Shown here: piece by piece, positions 2,222 to 26,679 of the stretch | Position numbering within the stretch: the first letter of the stretch is position 1 | How the letters are laid out: every line of letters starts with the position of its first letter | Virus record (IMG/VR): IMGVR_UViG_3300036985_007129 | Span: 1 to 32,529 of that record | DNA: 32,529 nucleotides | DNA from: a virus | Taxonomy: Duplodnaviria; Caudoviricetes | Strand: one strand, 5' to 3' | Translations under genes and position numbers: made by a program | Notes under the pieces: model-generated | What the model was told of the DNA's origin: nothing | What the model saw: the letters and a program-made list of their open reading frames with translations, nothing else | The model's database searches: none

Positions 2222-2624
2222 CGTCTTCCTCCTCTTCTTCTGGTTCAAGTTGCGCCTCGAGCGCTTCAAGGTCGTGCTCATCAAGCACGGCGTATTCCTC
2301 GAGTTTGGTTTGCGCGGCTTCGCACAGGGCAATCGATTGCACGGCGTGTGGACTGATGGCAATCCATTCGATCCAGCCGACGAGGAAGTGGTTCTCGCAA
2401 ACAACCACATGACCGCAGCACAGTTCGTCATCGGCATCGATGTCATTAGCCAAAGCGGTTGTGATGTCCGCTGTTTCGACGGCGCGCAACTGCGCAAGCA
2501 GCACACGGAAGTTGGATTCATCAACCGTGTTTGAGTCTCGGCAGCGAGACACGGGCGAAACGAGAAACCCGTCCCATCGTTCGCCGTGGTAGTAGCGCGG
2601 CATCTTCCAGGGTTGAAGACTCAT
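2190..2624 (-). CDS. Phage hypothetical protein with very acidic C-terminus
   Basis: RDS...ESNF, HFLVGWIEW and LEEYAVLDE motifs; EPEEEEEDDDDDTD tail; GGGAGG RBS. Confidence 0.75.
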   Translation of the reverse strand: MSLQPWKMPRYYHGERWDGFLVSPVSRCRDSNTVDESNFRVLLAQLRAVETADITTALANDIDADDELCCGHVVVCENHFLVGWIEWIAISPHAVQSIALCEAAQTKLEEYAVLDEHDLEALEAQLEPEEEEEDDDDDTDAKSV

Positions 2625-2818
2625 GTTGCCTCCCTGCTGAGTTTGACGTTAGAGAGAAAGCAGAAAGCAATTCTGACTTTGCCGTCATGCGGAACATGAA
2701 GCACATCGACATGGCCGATGACCTCGCCCGCAATCGAAACGATCATGCGATCGCCCTCACGGCATTCGCGGTTGATGCATCCCGCGCCCGGAAGTTTCTT
2801 GCGTTCGATGGACTTCAT
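2621..2818 (-). CDS. Divergent CsrA/RsmA-like small RNA-binding protein (65 aa)
   Basis: REGDRMIV...VDVLHV..GKVRIAF.....VKLSRE aligns by eye to CsrA RVGETLMI...VTVLGV..NQVRIGV.....VSVHRE; GGGAGG RBS. Confidence 0.55.
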   Translation of the reverse strand: MKSIERKKLPGAGCINRECREGDRMIVSIAGEVIGHVDVLHVPHDGKVRIAFCFLSNVKLSREAT

Positions 2819-3072
2819 CGTGTGCCTCCCTGACGGGCGGCAGGGCGTTGCGCCCCGCCGGCCCGCTTAGTCGGGGAGACAGCCGCGTCGTGCGGTTCCG
2901 ACGGGTCAGAGTCTACAACGCGCCACTGATTCATGCGCGTCACCCATTGAATGGCGGCGAGCTCATCCGTGTCAGCCGCGGCAAGCCGTGCGGCAATCTT
3001 GGCAAGACCTCGAGCAACGACGGGCGAGTAGTGCGGGCGGCGATTGATGTTGAGCGGTTGCCCGTGAATCAC
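2815..3072 (-). CDS. Hypothetical protein
   Basis: GTG at 3072 overlapping the upstream TGA (GTGA), preceded by AGGAGG. Confidence 0.6.
   Translation of the reverse strand: MIHGQPLNINRRPHYSPVVARGLAKIAARLAAADTDELAAIQWVTRMNQWRVVDSDPSEPHDAAVSPTKRAGGAQRPAARQGGTR
2833..2866 (-). promoter_or_regulatory. GC-rich hairpin directly upstream of the RBS of the CsrA-like gene
   Basis: GGCGGGGCG-CAA-CGCCCTGCC stem (one G-U), extendable by GCGGG/CCCGT; ends 2 nt before GGGAGG. Confidence 0.45.
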
Positions 3073-3299
3073 TGAGAGCCTCCTGTTGGAAATACGAAAC
3101 GAGTGACCTCGCCGACAACCTTGCCCTGGTCGTTGCACTGCGCAACGAACACGGTGTCATACGGCGGTTGTTCAGTTGTGACGACGATCATGGAGATTGT
3201 CCACGAGTCACCGGTGACTTTGACCGTGAGGCCTTCTCTCGAGGTCCACAGGCGTGATGACGATCCTGACTTGCTGACGATGGTTGCGCGTCTAGGCAT
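3069..3299 (-). CDS. Hypothetical beta-rich early protein
   Basis: 76-aa ORF with GGAGA RBS and conserved leader hairpin. Confidence 0.7.
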   Translation of the reverse strand: MPRRATIVSKSGSSSRLWTSREGLTVKVTGDSWTISMIVVTTEQPPYDTVFVAQCNDQGKVVGEVTRFVFPTGGSQ

Positions 3300-3329
3300 G
3301 TTGTCTCCGAGTCTGCAGCATCGTGCTGC
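3300..3329 (-). promoter_or_regulatory. Start-associated hairpin repeat (GCAGC-ACGAT-GCTGC + AGACTCGGAGACAAC-ATG)
   Basis: Hairpin 3315..3329, 15 nt upstream of ATG at 3299. Confidence 0.85.
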
Positions 3330-3334
3330 GGTTT

Positions 3335-3368
3335 GAAAGGCAGGGATTGCGTTCCCGCAATCCGTGCC
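3335..3368 (-). terminator. Terminator-like hairpin after the Gp157 gene
   Basis: GGCA-C-GGATTGCG-GGAA-CGCAATCC-C-TGCC followed by only a short TTTC; weak U tract. Confidence 0.5.
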
Positions 3369-3372
3369 GTGG

Positions 3373-3897
3373 TCACTTTATGCTGATGCGGTTTCCGCGT
3401 TCGCCGATCGATGCAAAGGAAACTTCTTTGCCGTCGGTCATAGCGGCGCGGATGGCGTCCTTGTTGACGCTGAGGATTGTCTCGGACTTGACTGCCCACG
3501 ACGGCAACTCATCCATGCCGACGCGGATGTGCAACGGTGCCTTGCCGCCGTTGTTCACCAGACTGACTTTGAAATGGTCCGTCTGCACGGGCTTGAGTCC
3601 CTTGGTTTCGAAGATGAAGCGCAAGCGCTCGCGCAGCGCGTCGGCGGCCTTTGTGTCTGCCTTGACCAGGGCAGCAATCCGGTTGGACTCAACCAGCCGT
3701 GCGTCGGCGCGGGCTTCGATGTCGGCGATCAATCGAACGTAGGCATCGACCTTGCCCGTGAGGTCGGTTTCCAATTCGCGTTCCCATGCTTCAACGGCAA
3801 TGGAAACGGAGACATCTGAGATGTCTCCGTCGTTCTCGAGGAGCAGGGCCTCGAGCGCTTGCATGTCTGATCCAATTTCATAGAGGGTGCGTGCCAT
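3373..3897 (-). CDS. Siphovirus Gp157-family (Gam-like) protein
   Basis: MARTLYEI..., KVDAYVRLI, ESNRIAAL, FKVSLVNNGGKAPL, VNKDAIRAAM..GKEV.FA...RGNRISIK; start at 3897 follows the leader repeat. Confidence 0.85.
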   Translation of the reverse strand: MARTLYEIGSDMQALEALLLENDGDISDVSVSIAVEAWERELETDLTGKVDAYVRLIADIEARADARLVESNRIAALVKADTKAADALRERLRFIFETKGLKPVQTDHFKVSLVNNGGKAPLHIRVGMDELPSWAVKSETILSVNKDAIRAAMTDGKEVSFASIGERGNRISIK

Positions 3898-3929
3898 GTG
3901 TGTCTCTCGTTTCTGCAGCGTCGTGCCGC
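3898..3929 (-). promoter_or_regulatory. Start-associated hairpin repeat (GCGGC-ACGAC-GCTGC + AGAAACGAGAGACACAC-ATG)
   Basis: Hairpin 3915..3929 with one G-U pair, 17 nt upstream of ATG. Confidence 0.9.
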
Positions 3930-3931
3930 GT

Positions 3932-4198
3932 TCACTGAGCAAAGAGGATTGTATCGCCGAGTTCAGCAATGATATCGTTTCGGTTGTAGTTCTCGAGCTC
4001 AAGCGTGTCCTCTTTGCTGACCTCAATAAACTCGCAGCAGAGGGCAATCACGTCAAGCTCGATCGGTGAGCCGCTGTCTTCCTCGAGCGCCTCGAGGTGG
4101 TTGAACATGGCTTCAAGTGCTGGACGGCTGAACTGGTCTCCGCGTCCAGCGGTCTTGAAGGCGTTCTCAAAGTCGGACAGGTAAACCTTGATGATCAT
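3932..4198 (-). CDS. Acidic small phage protein (FS..ALEA.F..LE...ELDVIALCCEF type)
   Basis: 88-aa ORF flanked by leader repeats; about 19 D/E versus 6 K/R. Confidence 0.8.
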   Translation of the reverse strand: MIIKVYLSDFENAFKTAGRGDQFSRPALEAMFNHLEALEEDSGSPIELDVIALCCEFIEVSKEDTLELENYNRNDIIAELGDTILFAQ

Positions 4199-4229
4199 GG
4201 GAAGTCTCGTTTCTGCAGCGTCGTGCTGC
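4199..4229 (-). promoter_or_regulatory. Start-associated hairpin repeat (GCAGC-ACGAC-GCTGC + AGAAACGAGACTTCCC-ATG)
   Basis: Hairpin 4215..4229, 16 nt upstream of ATG. Confidence 0.9.
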
Positions 4230-4237
4230 GGTAGTGA

Positions 4238-4561
4238 TTAGATGACGGTCAGGATGCTGATTGGATGCGCGGACCAGTGCTGCCAAGCCTCATGAGCAAA
4301 GGCATCGCATTCATCGGTGCCGTGCTCGCTGACGTCGATGATTGCGGACATGGCTTCAACCATTACGCCGAGCGTGTCCGTGTGTTGGTTCGATGCGCAG
4401 TCCATGAGGCAGACCGGTTTCTCGGATGCGTTCACGGCGAGCACGGTGATGTACGCGGCTTCGCCGAGTTCCGTGAACAGTTGTCTGCCAAACTTCTTGG
4501 CCGTGCGTTCGATGTTGGCGGCGTAAACAACGGGGTGATTCTTGAGGTTCGTGAGGTTCAT
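4238..4561 (-). CDS. Hypothetical early protein
   Basis: 107-aa ORF between two leader repeats. Confidence 0.8.
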   Translation of the reverse strand: MNLTNLKNHPVVYAANIERTAKKFGRQLFTELGEAAYITVLAVNASEKPVCLMDCASNQHTDTLGVMVEAMSAIIDVSEHGTDECDAFAHEAWQHWSAHPISILTVI

Positions 4562-4591
4562 CTGTGTCTCGTTTCTTCAGCGTCGTGCTGC
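4562..4591 (-). promoter_or_regulatory. Start-associated hairpin repeat (GCAGC-ACGAC-GCTGA + AGAAACGAGACACAG-ATG)
   Basis: Hairpin 4577..4591; its terminal TGA is the stop codon of the upstream ORF. Confidence 0.9.
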
Positions 4592-4780
4592 GTTGAGGAT
4601 CATCGTGCGTTGAATGCTTGGCGGCATGCGGTGCGCAGCCGTGAAGTCGTTGATTGAGTCGTTCCAAACAAGAACGCGGTTTCCGTCTTTGACCAAGCAC
4701 CGGTGCGCCTTGACGATTCCGTCAAAGAAAGCAATGCAACGGACTGAGGTCATTTCAATAGGTTGAAGAGGACGGGTCAT
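4577..4780 (-). CDS. Hypothetical early protein
   Basis: 67-aa ORF between leader repeats. Confidence 0.75.
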   Translation of the reverse strand: MTRPLQPIEMTSVRCIAFFDGIVKAHRCLVKDGNRVLVWNDSINDFTAAHRMPPSIQRTMILNAARR

Positions 4781-4810
4781 CTGTGTCTCGTTTCTGCGGC
4801 GTCGTGCCGC
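4781..4810 (-). promoter_or_regulatory. Start-associated hairpin repeat (GCGGC-ACGAC-GCCGC + AGAAACGAGACACAG-ATG)
   Basis: Hairpin 4796..4810, 15 nt upstream of ATG. Confidence 0.9.
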
Positions 4811-4816
4811 GGGTGA

Positions 4817-5314
4817 TTAGCGAGCAAGGAAAGCCGCATCGTTGCAGGCTTTGCGTGCTTCATCAAAGGACTTGAGCAATCGGCGTGCAGTCATATCAGC
4901 AACTTCAAATGCTTGGTCGGCTTCCCACTTTGCGCGACGTGCTTGATCGCGTTGGTCGCATGATGCGTGATAGTCGGACTGCGCTTTAATCAATGCGCTG
5001 CTAGCAGCGGCAAGCAATGCCCACGGGTCCGTGGTCGGTTCCATCGTTGGTGTTGCAGTCACGACGGTCAGCACTTCATAGACGATGGTCCGCACGATGC
5101 GCTTGCCACAAGTCGGAACATTGGAAATCAGGTTTCCAACCTTGTACCGATTGTCAGCGCGGAAGATTGCTTCAGCGAAGTGCTTTGCATCAACTCCCGC
5201 GCCCTCAGTCTTCGCAAAGCGCAGACGGGTGTGGCGGATTCCGTTGACCTTCGTCTCGAGCACTTGATCGCGGTTCTTTGTTGCTGCCAAGACATTGATT
5301 GTGATCGTTTGCAT
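4817..5314 (-). CDS. Hypothetical early protein, paralogue of 5351..5827
   Basis: MQTITINVLAATKN...CGKRIVRTIVYEVLTV plus C-terminal coiled coil. Confidence 0.8.
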   Translation of the reverse strand: MQTITINVLAATKNRDQVLETKVNGIRHTRLRFAKTEGAGVDAKHFAEAIFRADNRYKVGNLISNVPTCGKRIVRTIVYEVLTVVTATPTMEPTTDPWALLAAASSALIKAQSDYHASCDQRDQARRAKWEADQAFEVADMTARRLLKSFDEARKACNDAAFLAR

Positions 5315-5344
5315 GTGTGTCTCGTTTCTGCGGCGTCGTGCCGC
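5315..5344 (-). promoter_or_regulatory. Start-associated hairpin repeat (GCGGC-ACGAC-GCCGC + AGAAACGAGACACAC-ATG)
   Basis: Hairpin 5330..5344, 15 nt upstream of ATG. Confidence 0.9.
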
Positions 5345-5350
5345 GATGGT

Positions 5351-5827
5351 TTAGATAGCAAGCCGTGCTTCGCAAGCCTTGAGGTCTGCCGCGTCCAATG
5401 CCTCGTTGGCAAACATCAATTCCCTGTCAGCCTTGTACTTTGCACGGAGTGCTGCGTCGCGCTTGGCGAGCATGATGCAGTAGTGGCTCTGCGCTTGGTC
5501 ATATGCTGCTCGAGCAGCAATCTCCCTTTCGGTCCGCACCGAAGGCGCAACCGTCAGGACCTTGAACACGAAGCGACGCACGATGCGCGCGCCGCATTCT
5601 GGTGTGGTTGCCTCGCTTGGAACGAGTTCTCCAACGATCAACCCGCCGAGGTTTGCTGCGCTTGGTGCGTTGCTCAGAAGGGCTGCCGCGAATTGCTGCG
5701 CAGCGAGTTCAGGAGTCCGACCGAAAGCCATGAAGAGTTGAGTCTCGCGCAAGCCCATGAACTGGACTGAAAGTTTGCGACCAGTGTTCTTCGTTGCCTT
5801 GAGGAGATTGACGGTGATCGTTTGCAT
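5351..5827 (-). CDS. Hypothetical early protein, paralogue of 4817..5314
   Basis: MQTITVNLLKATKN...CGARIVRRFVFKVLTV plus C-terminal coiled coil. Confidence 0.8.
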   Translation of the reverse strand: MQTITVNLLKATKNTGRKLSVQFMGLRETQLFMAFGRTPELAAQQFAAALLSNAPSAANLGGLIVGELVPSEATTPECGARIVRRFVFKVLTVAPSVRTEREIAARAAYDQAQSHYCIMLAKRDAALRAKYKADRELMFANEALDAADLKACEARLAI

Positions 5828-5855
5828 GTGTCTCGTTTCTGCGGCTCCGTGCCGC
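5828..5855 (-). promoter_or_regulatory. Start-associated hairpin repeat with ACGGA loop (GCGGC-ACGGA-GCCGC + AGAAACGAGACAC-ATG)
   Basis: Hairpin 5841..5855, 13 nt upstream of ATG; loop contains the ANGGA core of CsrA sites. Confidence 0.9.
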
Positions 5856-5874
5856 GGTTTCTTTGACTAGGTGA

Positions 5875-5905
5875 ATCATAGCGAGCAACAGGCAAGTGGA
5901 AGCAC
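5875..5905 (-). promoter_or_regulatory. Candidate sigma70-type promoter for the early cassette array
   Basis: TATGAT -10 at 5875..5880 in an AT-richer intergenic gap; no convincing -35 at 17-bp spacing. Confidence 0.4.
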
Positions 5906-5964
5906 TTTGCTACAAAGTTTGAGAAGTTTCTAGGAAATGTTGGAAATGGGCTCTGGTTGACCAG

Positions 5965-6046
5965 AAACGCGTGTGGGGAGCCCGGTTCGCGGCAGACCAA
6001 TCGGGCTAGCCGAATGCTCGGATGCCCCACAGGTCATCCTAGAGCC
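5965..6046 (-). repeat. Dispersed non-coding element, inverted copy (GGCTCTAGGATGACCTGTGGGGCATCCGAGC)
   Basis: Reverse complement of 6012..6046 matches 436..470 at 26/35 positions without gaps. Confidence 0.65.
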
Positions 6047-6587
6047 CTTGCTTGGCGGCTGATGATCGACGCGACGGCGGCAGGGTTCGCGACCAGAACA
6101 GCCGCGCCGACATGCCATCGACGTTTCGATCGCGGGCAAGGTCGGAAACGGCGAGCACCCACGTCCTAGGCCACGCGCCCGGGTCGCCGTCAGGTCGATG
6201 CCATCCAAGCGACTCGAGGAAGTGCACTGCGGTTTCAATCGTGGCAGCATCGATCGATGCAAGGTCGCGCCGTACGGCAAACCATTCCATGTCGACTCTG
6301 CTGACGCCAAGATCCATGTCAATCCTCGCCTGATGGCTCGCCACGTCTCTGCGTCTCTCTGCAGCAGCCGTTGACTCGCAATCATGATACTCGCGAAACT
6401 TCGATGGAAGGAATCGACCGAACGTTCCGCCGAAGTCGAGCGCGTACTGGTTCAGCGCAGCCATGCAGACGGCACAGTCTTTGTCTCGCATCCACCGGAC
6501 ATGCAGCGCAAAGATGTCTTCATCCATCGCGCCGCCGAAGAGGGCTCGAACCCTCAGACACAGCGCTGCTAGTTCAATCGCATTCAT
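6039..6587 (-). CDS. Hypothetical protein, possibly replication-associated (helicase loader-like N-terminus)
   Basis: 182-aa ORF with helical N-terminus ending in an F-x-P motif, downstream of a REEKRREEK linker, where lambda P/G39P-like genes usually sit; function is inference. Confidence 0.6.
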   Translation of the reverse strand: MNAIELAALCLRVRALFGGAMDEDIFALHVRWMRDKDCAVCMAALNQYALDFGGTFGRFLPSKFREYHDCESTAAAERRRDVASHQARIDMDLGVSRVDMEWFAVRRDLASIDAATIETAVHFLESLGWHRPDGDPGAWPRTWVLAVSDLARDRNVDGMSARLFWSRTLPPSRRSSAAKQGL

Positions 6588-6816
6588 CGTCTCTCTCTTC
6601 TCCGCGTCGTGCGGAAGTGTCTAGGAGATAGAGAGATAGAAGTTCTTTCTCTTCTCTTCTCTTCTCTTCTCGTCGGCAAGGCCTCGTACATGTATTGCCC
6701 TCGCGAGCGAAAGTACATGGGGAAATGTCTGGATTGTTTGAAACTCCCGTATACCTGACCAAGTTTCCTGAGAATGTGGCGGATGCAATTCCTTGCACCC
6801 GCCACCGGTGAGTCAT
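6574..6816 (-). CDS. Short ORF containing REEKRREEK; possible remnant of a replication initiator/origin region
   Basis: ATGA overlap at 6813..6816; low-complexity product. Confidence 0.3.
   Translation of the reverse strand: MTHRWRVQGIASATFSGNLVRYTGVSNNPDISPCTFAREGNTCTRPCRREEKRREEKELLSLYLLDTSARRGEERDDECD
6588..6615 (-). promoter_or_regulatory. Start-associated hairpin with a different stem (TCCGC-ACGAC-GCGGA + GAAGAGAGAGACG-ATG)
   Basis: Hairpin 6601..6615, 13 nt upstream of ATG at 6587; same loop, outer three pairs changed. Confidence 0.8.
6646..6671. repeat. (CTTCT)n pentamer tandem repeat, about 5 units
   Basis: tttct cttct cttct cttct cttct c. Confidence 0.9.
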
Positions 6817-7172
6817 CGAAGGCATGATGCCCTGATGGCCATGATGGATCGCAGAGCACGATGAACCAGGTCGAATCGGATAGATGGGTCGCACGACTCC
6901 CATTGCACCTCTCGCCTGATCACCGTTGATTGCGACAGCCGCAGCGCCCGAGCAACGGCTCCGCGATTCGGGCGAATGTGCAGAGGCATCAAGTCGTAGA
7001 CGACTCCAACTCGAGCAATCGTACGGCAGTGCTGCACGGCTGCATCGGTAGAGATGATTGCCGCCGCTTCAACCGCTTCGTGCAGCGTGACAGCACGGAA
7101 GACGGATGCGTCGTCTTGCGAAACGCCGAGCATGTGACGGACGCACGCTGGTCCGATGATGCCGTGCCTCAT
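6813..7172 (-). CDS. Hypothetical protein with possible C-terminal HTH
   Basis: ATGA overlap with bet stop; [18 protein letters not shown] resembles an HTH. Confidence 0.6.
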
Positions 7173-8089
7173 GATCCTGCCCCTACGTCTCCGATGATTC
7201 CAGTGACAACACGCTTGCCCTTGACGTCCTCGAGCTCGACGAAGGTCCCGACATCCATTGCAAGGTTGGCTTCGAGCAGCGACGCAATTGTCGGGTCAAG
7301 ACAGGCAATCGGTTTGCTGTCACCAGCAATGTCAATCCGCCACACTCGCCCTCCCTTGGCGTTCTTGACGGCAACGATGCGAGTCCCTGCAGGAATCTCA
7401 ATTCCTCGCACGTTGGCAGGATCGGGAGCCGCCGCCGCCGGCGTGGGTGACAGCAGATGGATGATGTCGTCCTTCCTCTCTTGAACCGTCTGCGGTTCAT
7501 GGCGCGCAGGTTCAGCCGTCTCGGGCGTTGCCTGTGCCATCTCCTCTGCCGTGTACAGACCGGACAACTCAGCAGGAAATGCCTTGCGCAGTGCCAATGC
7601 CTCGGCACACTTGCTGAGCATGAGTGACGGCATCTTCTGCCACATCTTTGTCACGTTGCCTTGATGATCCAACTGCGCGTACTCAGTCCACAGGGCAATG
7701 GCAAACAGCGGTTCACGGAAGCCGCGTCGATGAACGCCAACACGCGCAGCCGCGGGCGGGAACCCTGCTAACCACACGTCTTTCCATTCTCCATCCTCAC
7801 CGCACCAAGTCGGTGACGACTGCCCTTCGTACTCTCCGCTCCTCTGAGCAATCAACCGGGCTCCGTCAATGCTTACCTGAGTTGACATGACCTCGCGACG
7901 TTCGCGCGCGTCCCAACGCTTGACAGCAAAGATTTGCCGTGCAAAGGGGTCAAGCCCCGTCCTCTCGCAGATTTGGCTGAACAGCAACAACTCGTCAGGG
8001 CTTGCGCCCTTGCAGAGTGTGCGACGAAGCAGGTCAAGACGGTCAGCGGCTTGTTGCTGCGTGACCACGATGGCGTTGATTTCACTCAT
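7169..8089 (-). CDS. bet: Phage single-strand annealing recombinase, Bet/RecT family
   Basis: [81 protein letters not shown]. Confidence 0.95.
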
Positions 8090-8180
8090 CAGCCCCTCCC
8101 TTCATCATGTCGACAAACAGAGGCGCAAAGGTCATGAACGCAGAGAATGCGATCAACGCTGAACAACACAGATATGTCAT
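8082..8180 (-). CDS. Small hydrophobic peptide, 32 aa
   Basis: AAGGAGACAGCC-ATG at 8180; [32 protein letters not shown]; overlaps bet start. Confidence 0.6.
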
Positions 8181-8197
8181 GGCTGTCTCCTTGTGAA

Positions 8198-8214
8198 GCG
8201 GACACCGTGCCCGC
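8198..8214 (-). promoter_or_regulatory. Start-associated hairpin variant (GCGGGC-ACGGT-GTCCGC)
   Basis: 6-bp stem with C-G closing pair and ACGGT loop, 17 nt upstream of ATG at 8180. Confidence 0.6.
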
Positions 8215-8238
8215 AAGCAACCATGATATCGTCTTAGC

Positions 8239-8529
8239 GTGGCATCCGAACGCAGTAAAAAACAACGCCATTTGCACCCGTCAATCCGAAGCGCTCGATT
8301 GATTCGGCACGTTGCTGCAACCAAGGCGGCGCTCCGTTCGGCTCATCAACCACTCGGATTCATCACGCGCGACGCATTGAATGGCAACATCGACACAGGC
8401 GACAATGCTGCTCTGCTCGACCTGTTGACGGCTGCGCTTGACCTTGCTGATGACAAGAGGACGCAGACCTTGATTGCCTACGCGCGAACCAGTCTCATCA
8501 TCCACATCACGCAATCAACGTGTCGCTGA
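8239..8529 (+). CDS. Candidate sole plus-strand gene, hypothetical helical protein (start uncertain)
   Basis: Fills the gap between tail and early regions; amphipathic NAALLDLLTAALDLADDKRTQTLIAYARTSL. Confidence 0.4.
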   Translation: MASERSKKQRHLHPSIRSARLIRHVAATKAALRSAHQPLGFITRDALNGNIDTGDNAALLDLLTAALDLADDKRTQTLIAYARTSLIIHITQSTCR

Positions 8530-23112: not shown

Positions 23113-23293
23113 CTTTCTTTACCTTTGATTGAGCAAGCACGATGTCGTATGCCTCATCAGGATCCATGCCATCCGCCATCAGCCGAGCCAGTTCGCGCAG
23201 TGCAACATCGTTGTTGAGGTTGCTCAGGAAACGCTCTTCGGCTCCGGGTAGAGATTCGTCTTCAATATCTGGTGGATTGAATTGCTTTGCCAT
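23105..23293 (-). CDS. Small acidic protein, 62 aa
   Basis: GGAGA RBS, TAATG overlap with the portal stop. Confidence 0.75.
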   Translation of the reverse strand: MAKQFNPPDIEDESLPGAEERFLSNLNNDVALRELARLMADGMDPDEAYDIVLAQSKVKKDE

Positions 23294-26200
23294 TAGTTTG
23301 TCTCCAAGTGCTCAACATCAACATGCAAGACGCCACTCTTGTCAAACTCACTTGTTTGCCTCCACTCCTTTGAGACAATTCTGAATCTTCCACCACGCGG
23401 GAGAAGCACTTCTTTTTCATCTGATTGACGTGCGTATTCCTCTGATATAGGAAGACCTTGACGCGTTGAGATTCTCATCAGCACTCTTGCTGGTGTATTC
23501 CCACCTGTTGCATCAATATCACTGAACTGAGTGAAGGCGATTGCTGTCTTCACATTTGTTGTTGTGCTCACAAATCCGCGATCGGTAAATGTAGAACCAA
23601 CTCCCATTGCATCAAGTGCTTTCAGCGCTGCAACATCTTTGAATCCTCGATAAACAGGAATTGGCTTTTCTCGCAGTTCACTGCGAGTGGCAACATCAAG
23701 AGCAGCAATCTCCATAGATATTTGTTTGCCTGTGTTGTTGAAGCCACTTGTACTTGATCCCGTTCTCAACGCTGCATTTATTTTTGTGTATCCGTCAGAT
23801 GAGTAACTTCCCAAAGCAGCAATTGCCATTGGAGTGTTACTTACTACTGAACGCTGATTTTTAGTGAGTTCAGGATATTGAACTTCCTTCCATTCTTCGC
23901 TGACGCCAACTCGCATTGCACTTGCTGGTGGTGGTGTTCCAGGAGTTGCACTTGGTCCTGCTGTTTTTGCGTCAACAGGTTTCGTTGGTTGATCTGCTGC
24001 AGCACTGAACTTGCTCTGCTGCTTTGGAGGAGCAGTTGGCTCAGCATCGATCGGCGCAACCTTCGATTGCGAACCTGACTTGGCGGGCTTGATGAAGCCG
24101 GCGGCAATTGCTTTTTCCTTTGCAGCAATGCCAGGATCGTTCTTCAGAGTTGCTGCTTTAGCCTTGTTCTCTGAAGCAGATAGAACAATGCCAAAGTCAT
24201 TGGCAACAGATTCACGCTGCCCTGCATCCATTCTTGAAAGCGCTGCCGCTGCATCTGTCTTTGCATCGGCTTTCGACTTTCCTTCAGACTCTGCTAGAGC
24301 CCTCAGGACGGCATACAACTTTGCATCGCCTACTGTTTCAACTACGTCCTTTGGATAGTTGGCTTTGCTCATCCAGTCACCTGGTTTTTTTTTTCCTTCT
24401 GATGATGACTCTGCATCTCCACCGCCGTCTCCTCCACCTGCGCACGAGTTGCCCGGCTTGAATCCACCAGCGCCGCTTCCGCAATCTTTGGTCTGCACAT
24501 CTGATGATCGAGCTCGATCAAACTCATCGCGCTTGCGCTTCGACCACGACCAACCTTCGTCGCCTCCCCATCCGTTCCATGCTTGCCATCCCTTGCCCTG
24601 CTCATCCCACGACTCGCCCTGCTTGTCGACTTCGTGCCGCTCGAAGTAGGCAACCATTCGACGGATGGTTTCCTCGGACAACGGCGTCCTGTTCTGAAGG
24701 TCACGCGCGCGCGCAATGCCGACAGAGGTCATGCCGCGTTGCGACTGAGGTGCTTCGGCTCGAACCTCAAGCGCGCGTCGCGCGTTGTCGGCAACTGACT
24801 GCGGAGGGGTTGTGTCGATGTCCTCGAGCGACTTGGTCTGACCGTCATCGCACATGGAGATTGCAATTGCGATTGCCTGCTCGCGGTCATATCCCTCGTC
24901 AAGCAGTTTGCCAATCTTCTCAGACGTGCATTGGTTGCTTGCTTTCTCGATTGAACCACAGGCGCAGTTTGCTCCTGCACACTTGGCAACGATCGGCACT
25001 GCTGCTGCTGGCGGTTTCTCTTGCTGCTGCTGCTGCGGCGTGATAGGAGAAAAGATGGATTCAATCAGTTGCGGGCTGACAGACGGGAACGCAGCCGACG
25101 CAATTGCGCGGACCGAATCAATGGGCAACTCGGCAAGCGCTGCCGACCGCGCGAGTCCAATCAGGGATGAGATTTGCGCGCCGTTCAACGCGGCTGCCGC
25201 CGGGGCATCAATGGCTACCGCAGGGGCATCACCCGACGGCGCTGCTTCACCCGTGACGGGAGCGCTGGTTGGTTGGTCAATCGGGCTGATTTGCTCGCTC
25301 TCAGCCGCCGGCGTGGTTGGATCGGCAATGGGAAGCGCTTCAGGCTGACTAGGATCGCCTGTGGGACCTCCCAATGGTTGGTTGCCCATCAGTAGTCTGT
25401 CGGCGGCGGGGTCCTCAGACGCGTCCAGGCCGTTCCGTGTGCGAGCCTCGTTCACGGTCATGATGCCGCCCGCAACCGACGACCGGTTCTTTTCAAACTC
25501 AAACCGCTCATCGGACAGGACAGGATTGTCATAGGCGAGGAACGCGTCGCCTTCGATGTTGAACATCGGCAGCAGATTCTGATTCAGGACCTCTTCGTCC
25601 ATGCGCAGAAGCGGGAGGATGGTGTTTGCCTTCCAAGCAGCAAAGCCGATGGTCGCCGACGCAAGGTTTGGATCGTTGGCTTTGAGCATGCTGACAGGCA
25701 CGCCAAACACGGCGGCAATCTCTTCAACGATGTCAGTGCGTCCCTGCAAGTCCTTTGGCGGAAACGACAGCGGCTTGATGTCGATGTCAGCCGATGCCGT
25801 GAGGAATCGACCCGCGCGCTTTGACCCGCGCAACTTCTCTTCAATCTGCTTCTCGAGCCGATCCATCTCTTCCGTGCTCACCATGCCCTTGATGGTCATG
25901 AGCCAATCAGGTCGCGCCTTGTTTGCGAAGAAGTGATAGTCCATCGAGTGAATCTCGTCGTTGGACATGATTGCACCCCACGCCGCTTCCGCTTTTCCGA
26001 TGCCGTAGTAGAGGTCGTTGGGATTCGGTCGCTTGAAGTGGATGACCTCTTCAGCAGGAAACAGGCGGCGCTTGTCTCGCTCTGCTCCGTACAAGTAGCC
26101 ATCAATGAAATCAACTTTGCCCGGAACAATCTCCACGAACTGCGAGGGCATTGTCCAGAGCTCGACTGGAATGCCTAATGCCTTGTCAACGACAGGATGC

Positions 26201-26679
26201 AAGTAGGCGTTGCCCGTCAACTCGGTGTACAGGATGCGCAGCACCGTTGCGTCGAATCCATTCTGATAGGGATTGACCTTCTCGAGCAAGTCTAGCACGG
26301 GATGATTCTCTGTCACCACTTCGTAGTTGTCGCCGTACTCCGCTGCTTTGCGAATGACATGGCGCGACGGAAGATGATCGAGGTCGCCGGCGTGGAACGC
26401 CTTGACGCGCGCCGAAACCGACCGCGTCTTCCAGAGTTTCTTCTTGCCGTCGCGCGATCGCACGTACAAGCGCAACGGTTGAGAAGCAACGGCAACCGCA
26501 TTCAGGTTTGCAGCCGCGTACACCCAAGACGAGTACGACCGAACGGCAGACGCGTAGGAGAAAGGTTGCCGCTTCCCTTCATCACCCATCACAATCTTTG
26601 AGGACGCAGCCATGTAAGCGGCATTGCTGGTTGCAGTCTTCGAGCGCACACGAGAAAGAAAGCGTTCGATCATGTTCAT
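23293..26679 (-). CDS. Portal protein (HK97-like) fused to extra modules and a C-terminal VIP2/Alt-like ADP-ribosyltransferase
   Basis: Portal motifs HPVLDLLEKVNPYQ, LTGNAY, EEVIHFK, EEIAAVFGVP, GIMTVNEAR; ART motifs YTKINAALR, VYRG, GFVSTT, EKEVLLPRG. Confidence 0.92.
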   Translation of the reverse strand: MNMIERFLSRVRSKTATSNAAYMAASSKIVMGDEGKRQPFSYASAVRSYSSWVYAAANLNAVAVASQPLRLYVRSRDGKKKLWKTRSVSARVKAFHAGDLDHLPSRHVIRKAAEYGDNYEVVTENHPVLDLLEKVNPYQNGFDATVLRILYTELTGNAYLHPVVDKALGIPVELWTMPSQFVEIVPGKVDFIDGYLYGAERDKRRLFPAEEVIHFKRPNPNDLYYGIGKAEAAWGAIMSNDEIHSMDYHFFANKARPDWLMTIKGMVSTEEMDRLEKQIEEKLRGSKRAGRFLTASADIDIKPLSFPPKDLQGRTDIVEEIAAVFGVPVSMLKANDPNLASATIGFAAWKANTILPLLRMDEEVLNQNLLPMFNIEGDAFLAYDNPVLSDERFEFEKNRSSVAGGIMTVNEARTRNGLDASEDPAADRLLMGNQPLGGPTGDPSQPEALPIADPTTPAAESEQISPIDQPTSAPVTGEAAPSGDAPAVAIDAPAAAALNGAQISSLIGLARSAALAELPIDSVRAIASAAFPSVSPQLIESIFSPITPQQQQQEKPPAAAVPIVAKCAGANCACGSIEKASNQCTSEKIGKLLDEGYDREQAIAIAISMCDDGQTKSLEDIDTTPPQSVADNARRALEVRAEAPQSQRGMTSVGIARARDLQNRTPLSEETIRRMVAYFERHEVDKQGESWDEQGKGWQAWNGWGGDEGWSWSKRKRDEFDRARSSDVQTKDCGSGAGGFKPGNSCAGGGDGGGDAESSSEGKKKPGDWMSKANYPKDVVETVGDAKLYAVLRALAESEGKSKADAKTDAAAALSRMDAGQRESVANDFGIVLSASENKAKAATLKNDPGIAAKEKAIAAGFIKPAKSGSQSKVAPIDAEPTAPPKQQSKFSAAADQPTKPVDAKTAGPSATPGTPPPASAMRVGVSEEWKEVQYPELTKNQRSVVSNTPMAIAALGSYSSDGYTKINAALRTGSSTSGFNNTGKQISMEIAALDVATRSELREKPIPVYRGFKDVAALKALDAMGVGSTFTDRGFVSTTTNVKTAIAFTQFSDIDATGGNTPARVLMRISTRQGLPISEEYARQSDEKEVLLPRGGRFRIVSKEWRQTSEFDKSGVLHVDVEHLETN
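24385..24394 (-). repeat. A10 homopolymer inside the portal gene
   Basis: GGA AAA AAA AAA CCA on the coding strand. Confidence 0.9.
24421..24489 (-). repeat. Peptide repeat KDCGSGAGGFKPGNSCAGGGDGG inside the portal
   Basis: 22/23 aa identical to 23017..23085. Confidence 0.95.

Follow-up and report, generated by a model that had tools for sequence, protein, structure and literature searches.

Why should the early genes of a phage each carry the same small hairpin just ahead of their ribosome-binding sites? We address this question in IMG/VR record IMGVR_UViG_3300036985_007129, a Caudoviricetes sequence of 32,529 nucleotides (nt) that was analysed over its whole length and is called the window below. 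A preliminary description, made from the sequence alone, had reported a covarying pentaloop hairpin in front of nine early genes between positions 3,300 and 8,214. We find that this RNA operator family is real and well supported. We also recognize a divergent CsrA-family protein encoded in the same genome and a candidate guide RNA with a seed complementary to the hairpin leaders. Guided repression, in which a CsrA-family dimer, a guide RNA and mRNA hairpins together silence the early genes, may explain the arrangement; we consider this reading about equally likely to be right or wrong.

Leader hairpins are RNA structures

Nine hairpins are present on the minus strand at the starts named in the preliminary description, with the stems and loops that it gave and with ends 13-17 nt 5' of the ATG. 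As it stated, the copy at 4561 has lost its outer pair, leaving a stem of 4 base pairs (bp), and the seven genes from 5827 to 3299 are consecutive. The leaders, with the lengths of the encoded proteins in amino acids (aa), are as follows.

8181..8214, minus strand: leader of the first early gene (32 aa); hairpin of 6 bp with loop ACGGT, followed by AAGGAGACAGCC; -10-like TATCAT just upstream
6588..6616, minus strand: leader of a conserved 182-aa gene; hairpin with loop ACGAC, and GAGAC at 6589-6593
5828..5855, minus strand: leader of a 158-aa gene, first of the seven-gene run; loop ACGGA; GAGAC at 5830-5834; -10-like TATGAT upstream
5315..5344, minus strand: leader of a 165-aa gene; hairpin, loop ACGAC; GAGAC
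4781..4810, minus strand: leader of a 67-aa gene; hairpin, loop ACGAC; GAGAC
4562..4590, minus strand: leader of a 107-aa gene; hairpin with the 4-bp stem, loop ACGAC; GAGAC
4199..4229, minus strand: leader of an 88-aa gene; hairpin GCAGC/GCTGC, loop ACGAC; GAGAC
3898..3929, minus strand: leader of the Gp157/Mu-Gam-like gene (3897-3373); hairpin with a G-U stem, loop ACGAC; GAGAC
3300..3329, minus strand: leader of a 76-aa gene; hairpin, loop ACGAT; GGAGAC

ACGGA at 5828..5855 is the sole GGA-containing loop among the nine. A scan of the window with a 26-nt consensus gave 6 matches, against none in 100 shuffles. The hairpins sit directly 5' of the Shine-Dalgarno sequence, which is the placement of CsrA/Rsm operators. 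A -10-like box precedes 3/8 true window hairpins scored; no coding-strand terminator and no U tract follows the window hairpins at these sites. Rfam returned no match at gathering score over the whole window and four matches at chance level (E 1.7-5) over 2700-8400.

Relatives of the window were fetched by motif and, separately, with either the neighbouring tail protein or the 6587 protein as query, a selection that avoids circularity. The claim that structural genes carry no such hairpin holds among them: when ACG(A/G)N loops are counted over 57 protein-selected loci including the window, hairpins precede 54/407 early starts and 0/444 late starts. In the protein-fetched relatives taken by themselves, the 5-bp stem is closed in 55/65 distinct early C-ANGRN-G leaders and in 1/25 late ones, a count that presupposes the loop and its closing C-G pair but no further pairing. 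Control loops had 5-bp stems in 5/88 and 1/24 cases, and the stem is full in 24/24 of the relatives' loops without GGA. The preliminary description had also argued from G-U pairs that selection acts on the mRNA strand. The single G-U case in the window is insufficient for that argument, but the relatives support it: their stems with exactly one non-Watson-Crick pair comprise six with G-U, one with A-C and two others. The covariation test that it had called for came out positive. Across 25 orthologous first-gene leaders, which were pre-filtered for the stem and not controlled for relatedness, 96% of 150 cells are paired (score 0.833; 0/500 shuffles), and two-sided changes occur at five of the six pairs. 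The leader hairpins are strand-specific RNA structures.

The inner stem takes 43 distinct forms across the clade. The loop follows the consensus A-N-G-R-(N), with ACGGA commonest (44/235), then AGGA (29/235) and ACGAT (27/235), and is closed by a C-G pair in 195/235 cases. The hairpin loop is read by its sequence. In a sister clade (L364, L366, L374), early leaders carry hairpins with other loops (GCCGA, GCAGA, GGAGA), which suggests a second switch of specificity. Seven further loci (L016, L024, L028, L031, L036, L038 and L048) each have a single hairpin-plus-GGAGAC leader and have few or no proteins in common with the window. A pattern scan of GTDB gave 67 matches, 27 of them with a 5-bp stem and one a convincing leader; these are mostly chance.

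A fixed tail beside the hairpin

The invariant part of the tract downstream of the hairpin is GAGAC, present in 9/9 window leaders. It occurs in 52/57 distinct hairpin leaders, compared with 21/181 other early leaders and 16/202 late leaders. The 3' end of the 16S rRNA of the likely host group is CACCUCCUUUCU in 5/5 Phycisphaerales genomes, and the ribosome therefore does not ask for AC after GAG. AGAAACGAG is an 8-of-9 match to the extended Shine-Dalgarno sequence. Because GAGAC is enriched in hairpin leaders and its AC is not demanded by 16S, it is selected by something besides 16S. In most of the leaders, the tract was originally read as a GAGA that replaces a GGAG Shine-Dalgarno. It is present as reported, but it is more than a weak Shine-Dalgarno: it is complementary to a seed in a separate candidate phage RNA, absent from the preliminary description and described below.

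A divergent CsrA-family protein

A short gene downstream of the hairpin leaders went unremarked in the preliminary description. By profile comparison, its product (ORF 2818-2621) is a divergent member of the CsrA family.

2621..2818, minus strand: divergent CsrA-family protein, 65 aa, of the Phycisphaerales second-paralogue type, with five strands and without a C-terminal helix; predicted to form a homodimer

The ORF is conserved in relatives, and 4/20 homologues match Pfam CsrA (PF02599; best E 1.2e-5). A profile of the phage family matches a second CsrA paralogue of Phycisphaerales with a probability of 97.4, and canonical CsrA with 9.7; the host second paralogue is itself above the Pfam CsrA cut-off, at 54.8 bits. 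Second paralogues could be parsed in 29 cases out of 41 fetched regions; the phage profile gives 29/29 of them 35-48 bits, and it gives 13 bits to 1/31 canonical entries. Sequence searches of the PDB with ORF 2818 and with its profile returned no CsrA. Searched against 40 named genomes of many phyla, the phage profile matches in the three Phycisphaerales only, which makes Phycisphaerales the likely host.

CsrA is present in at least one copy in 61/61 sampled Phycisphaerales genomes, most of which also have the divergent second paralogue. A search of 301 Phycisphaerales genomes for a related prophage found none, with one weak partial match. In one of the host loci (L303, G054:C47), a GGA-less ATGAG hairpin precedes a gene that resembles, by eye, fliW, whose product is a CsrA antagonist. 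The second paralogue (e.g. L207, L253-L292) is conserved and has an insertion after strand 2. Its leaders often hold AGGAG in a C-G-closed pentaloop; canonical csrA leaders hold ANGGAA hexaloops. The host paralogue may share the phage loop code.

A monomer model of the 2818 protein has five strands (predicted local distance difference test, pLDDT, 90.8) and no helix. Prediction with two copies gave a dimer score of 0.64, against 0.00 for the best control; at least 92% of contacts are shared between runs, with pLDDT of at least 77. The mark for a dimer is reached by 20/30 solved pairs and by 1/23 single chains, and the pass possibly stems from likeness to solved CsrA. The predicted contacts join strand 1 to 4' and strand 5 to 2'. 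This strand-swapped arrangement would fit CsrA as an intertwined dimer with two RNA-binding faces (PMC7366521; this and the other PMC papers are cited from extracts of their text). The protein ends three residues past a conserved arginine, so that no helix H1 follows strand 5. That arginine, R62, is the R44-equivalent: it aligns with the one after the histidine of the host paralogue and is kept in 13/20 homologues. Fold searches with the monomer model gave no significant match of any kind, and CsrA was not listed; they are probably uninformative because the fold needs its partner chain. In an Atlas search, a cluster that includes CsrA ranked eighth (score 0.80), which we treat as a lead only.

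A candidate guide element upstream of the csrA-like gene

A tenth hairpin of the operator type lies in the window and is not in front of a start codon. It belongs to an element upstream of the csrA-like gene, with the following parts.

2910..2915, minus strand: TAGACT, predicted -10 box for the transcript of guide and csrA-like gene; TA..T invariant in 23/23 aligned relatives, copies pre-filtered for such a box, at a near-fixed distance to the hairpin
2883..2895, minus strand: tenth, operator-type hairpin (candidate guide RNA), CCGC-ACGAC-GCGG; about 65 nt 5' of ORF 2818, at the head of a separate element
2873..2884, minus strand: guide seed GGCUGUCUCCCC; complementary to the GAGAC(A) of hairpin leaders; cis pairing with the csrA-like Shine-Dalgarno also possible
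2838..2860, minus strand: long GC-rich hairpin between the seed and the csrA-like start, with conserved structure and without a U tract

Most relatives have a common order of TA..T box, operator-type hairpin, GTCTCC, long GC hairpin and the Shine-Dalgarno sequence of the csrA-like gene. GTCTCC (GUCUCC in RNA) is the complement of GGAGAC. Under a strict filter, one guide element is present in 30/31 loci with at least two hairpin leaders and in 0/9 loci with fewer, and the csrA-like protein in 29/31 of the former; near-identical phages are included in these counts. Pairing of the window seed reaches 10 bp at the 8180 leader and about 5-7 at the other hairpin leaders.

Seed and targets change together

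GTCTCC is the seed in 24/24 main-lineage loci, and the targets differ where the seed differs: AC follows GAG in 99/107 targets of GTCTCC seeds, compared with 5/21 for other seeds. A quick tail-protein tree places 10 members in a subclade where the element no longer adjoins the csrA-like gene and the seed lies in a loop and has changed with its targets. There, L126 has the seed GACTCC and GGAGTC in 3/3 targets, and L157 has GCTCC and GGAGC in 3/5. The GCCGA-type loops of the sister clade (L366, L374) are followed by a GAGTC tail in 9/9 such leaders. For L374 we predicted a GACTCC seed before inspection, and it was found, unpaired, in the csrA-like leader behind a TACACT box. An ATGAT hairpin follows it, then a separate cis lock; with the order swapped, the strict filter had missed this element. 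Between L388 and L368 there is another swap (UGUUUC/GAAACA against UGAUUC/GAAUCA), which was picked post hoc and with one target each.

Over 12 loci, cognate seeds form 6.36 pairs and permuted seeds 5.01 (p 1e-5). In seven CTCC-anchored lineages, 16/5040 permutations reach the observed pairing (16/720 when the six other than the window are taken), counts that overstate independence because the lineages are related, which weighs against our proposal; the independent seed changes are few, perhaps three or four. The combination of a complementary seed and compensatory change is that of an antisense RNA acting in trans, with L363, L361 and L375 as exceptions.

A proposed three-part switch

The preliminary description had inferred a protein-bound RNA operator and offered three kinds: a CsrA-like site, a boxB-like antitermination signal, or a processing or stabilising site. 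The CsrA type appears the best of these because the phage encodes a CsrA-family protein; the boxB-like and processing options find no support. Eight of the nine window loops have no GGA, so the hairpins are not canonical CsrA sites.

In the guided repression that we propose, the leader hairpins are mRNA operators, in each of which an A-N-G-R-(N) loop sits next to a ribosome-binding site with a GAGAC tail. The phage CsrA-family dimer would bind the hairpin on an early mRNA and the like hairpin on the separately promoted phage RNA, while the GUCUCC seed pairs across the Shine-Dalgarno sequence and blocks ribosome loading. As both hairpins lie 5' of the complementary segments, they would stand at opposite ends of the duplex, one for each face of the dimer. 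We invoke a protein bridge because a duplex of 6-8 bp is too short to be selective alone. GGAG sites that lack a hairpin, and the Shine-Dalgarno sequence downstream of the seed itself, pair equally well with the window seed, a difficulty for the proposal; the seed thus cannot select targets alone. From the two RNA-binding faces of CsrA, the like hairpins and the unselective seed, we infer bridging by the dimer. Early translation would be shut off once the transcript from near 2903 accumulates, giving repression late in the early phase.

A programmable version, in which a CsrA-fold repressor carries a swappable seed of 6-8 nt that chooses which ribosome-binding sites are shut, is more tentative, and we put it slightly below even. 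In it, re-addressing would have run through GUCUCC/GGAGAC, GACUCC/GGAGUC, GCUCC/GGAGC, UGUUUC/GAAACA and UGAUUC/GAAUCA. As the seed would also lock, in cis, the ribosome-binding site of the repressor's gene, its pairing with early mRNA could by itself turn on production of the repressor.

A number of observations count against guided repression. Inside the main lineage there is no bias toward cognate pairing beyond GAGAC (p 0.11, 0.82, 0.63). Seed and target match poorly at L363 (0/5 at the first tail base), L361 (2/5) and L178 (1/3); the GTCTC seed predicted at the csrA-like leader of L375 was not found, and none of the kind predicted for L366 was found in the 6.8 kb covered. Window genes 1898 and 986 have GGAGAC and no hairpin. 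A competing predicted fold buries the window copy of the guide hairpin, and no terminator bounds a free small RNA at the guide element, where the long hairpin has no U tract. Among loci that have at most one ANGR hairpin, 6/9 still encode the csrA-like protein. Searches of Pfam, PHROG and PDB sequences with the window protein itself gave no match, and the R44-equivalent arginine, read by eye, is lost in 7/20 homologues. No covariation was found between loop class and protein class, and loop types mix within single phages.

Alternative explanations

The arrangement could be a plain two-site operator, in which the phage dimer binds the loop and GAGAC/ACGAG on one mRNA, and 2915-2825 is the protein's own autoregulated leader, with GUCUCC locking its Shine-Dalgarno in cis. 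Folding predictions give such cis pairing for the window and for many relatives, bridging of two sites on the same mRNA has been described for RsmE-hcnA (PMC4005645), and the missing cognate bias in the main lineage is what this explanation would lead one to expect. Its cis partner, however, is GGAGAC in only about half of the main-lineage loci although the seed is invariant; in L126, L157, L178, L361 and L363 the element stands apart from the csrA-like gene and the loop seed tracks the target tails, and L374 has a cis lock plus a separate loop seed. We regard it as unlikely, if the strongest of the competitors. Alternatively, the host second CsrA paralogue could be the binder, with a guide or with none, so that early translation reads the state of the host and the phage protein is an antagonist or modifier. 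The wide occurrence of CsrA and its second paralogue in the sampled Phycisphaerales, and the C-AGGAG-G pentaloop frequent in the paralogue's leader, are in keeping with this idea, as are GGA-less loops before host starts, which have 5-bp stems in 7/19 cases against 1/14 for a loop of shuffled sequence (p 0.056, or 0.087 when the seed hit is left out). The raw motif counts are not enriched (19 vs 14), a pilC-like lead has the hairpin near the start in only 1/23 parsed orthologues, a broader pattern gave one true leader in 17 matches over 251 genomes, and hairpin-bearing loci nearly all keep their own phage copy of the gene. A host regulon with phage-type loops is suggestive at best, and a host binder is improbable.

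Hairpins that protect or process 5' ends, or cassettes like the PeSL units spread by recombination, would make GAGAC shared by descent. A loose -10-like box lies upstream of 19/26 first-gene and 38/104 internal hairpins, leaders are duplicated with their flanks in some phages, genes 5827 and 5314 have 5' ends in common, and the phage has RecT. Yet loop and GAGAC are constant where the stems vary freely, a -10 box is missing from most of the internal copies in the window, the hairpins are not followed by U tracts, and descent leaves a complementary seed that changes with the tail unexplained; we give such explanations little credence. Least probable of all, and disfavoured, is an operator in double-stranded DNA, a boxB-like site for antitermination or a sigma-54 promoter. 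The inverted 5-5-5 geometry and boxB-like size invite these readings, and GGCACG resembles a sigma-54 -24 box, but the GG-to-GC gap here is 9 nt where sigma-54 promoters have 10. Both arms shift together to unrelated sequences within one genome, G-U outnumbers A-C six to one, position is fixed to start codons, and no boxA-like partner was seen. We rejected the sigma-54 promoter, DNA operator, boxB and an N4-type hairpin promoter on geometry, covariation and gene content.

Relation to known regulators

Phage RNAs that act in trans on ribosome-binding regions have a precedent in the C4 antisense RNA of phages P1 and P7. Our candidate guide is alike in being a trans-acting phage RNA and unlike in that no Rfam match is found here; to our knowledge, C4 does not use a CsrA-type protein or hairpin operators. 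The hairpin layer resembles the operators of CsrA, RsmA and RsmE (for example RsmE-hcnA, with A(N)GGAX loops; PMC7366521, PMC4005645) in its short C-G-closed hairpin and A-started loop by the Shine-Dalgarno, in the predicted CsrA-family dimer encoded in the same genome, and in ACGGA as the clade's commonest loop. Canonical CsrA needs GGA, and a GGA-to-AGA change abolishes RsmE binding (PMC4005645); here, in contrast, GGA is dispensable, the loops are penta- or tetraloops, the Shine-Dalgarno lies outside the loop with a fixed GAGAC tail, and the protein has no helix H1.

CsrA of Bacillus subtilis binds both the small RNA SR1 and its target ahrC and promotes their base pairing (PMC6546359, PMC7237705), and our proposal would have the phage protein do the same by analogy. 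There, a host CsrA acts through GGA sites on one target, with pairing downstream of the start codon. Here, protein and RNA are phage-encoded, guide and targets carry like hairpins, the seed is an anti-Shine-Dalgarno segment of 6-8 nt, the targets number up to nine, and seed and targets change together. Phage csrA alleles were found by homology in 30/2517 phage genomes, with no targets named in the extracts (PMC7366521). They resemble the window's gene in lying in a phage early region; the window family is too divergent for homology search and comes with targets and a guide. The PeSL cassettes of T4-type phages likewise place recurring stem-loops between the small early genes of a variable region, but each is a unit of promoter and terminator (PMC2839356). 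Units of that kind are not found here, where most copies have neither promoter nor U tract and the loop and Shine-Dalgarno tail are fixed. Literature searches, whose coverage left subscription papers mostly outside, found no description of this arrangement, and the supplementary phage table of PMC7366521 could list relatives. The new part is the guide with its co-changing seed; the hairpin-plus-CsrA layer varies an already known kind.

Genome setting

The window is a 32.5-kb tailed-phage genome whose last ~150 bases nearly repeat the first ~150, and it is therefore probably complete. On the minus strand, the gene order is terminase, portal, capsid, neck genes and then the early block, which includes two genes of recognizable type.

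8089-7169, minus strand: RecT gene
3897-3373, minus strand: Gp157/Mu-Gam-like gene

A locus search with Gp157 alone returned no relatives. The neighbouring early genes 5314 and 5827, at 4817-5314 and 5351-5827 (minus strand), are 80% identical over their first ~49 bases and are probably products of a duplication through the leader. The replication-initiator-like region at 6574-7172 (minus strand) consists of a 119-aa ORF and overlapping frames of 91 and 109 aa, which may reflect a frameshift or a split gene, and the 6587 hairpin sits within these frames. A strong additional hairpin at 3334-3368 (minus strand) lies between the Gp157 stop and the 3299 operator, with no long U tract. The 1128-aa portal ORF (23293-26679, minus strand) has a C-terminal ADP-ribosyltransferase domain (Pfam PF03496, E 3e-13) and is followed by a MuF-like gene.

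Implications

This clade provides a set of targets, a loop code independent of GGA and a candidate guide RNA for which compensatory mutants occur in nature. The analysis further suggests that Phycisphaerales have a second, so far undescribed subfamily of CsrA. If guided repression is correct, the matchmaker role of CsrA, shown for one Bacillus pair, would have been turned into a dedicated, programmable phage switch, which would be a candidate for a small orthogonal tool for translational control.

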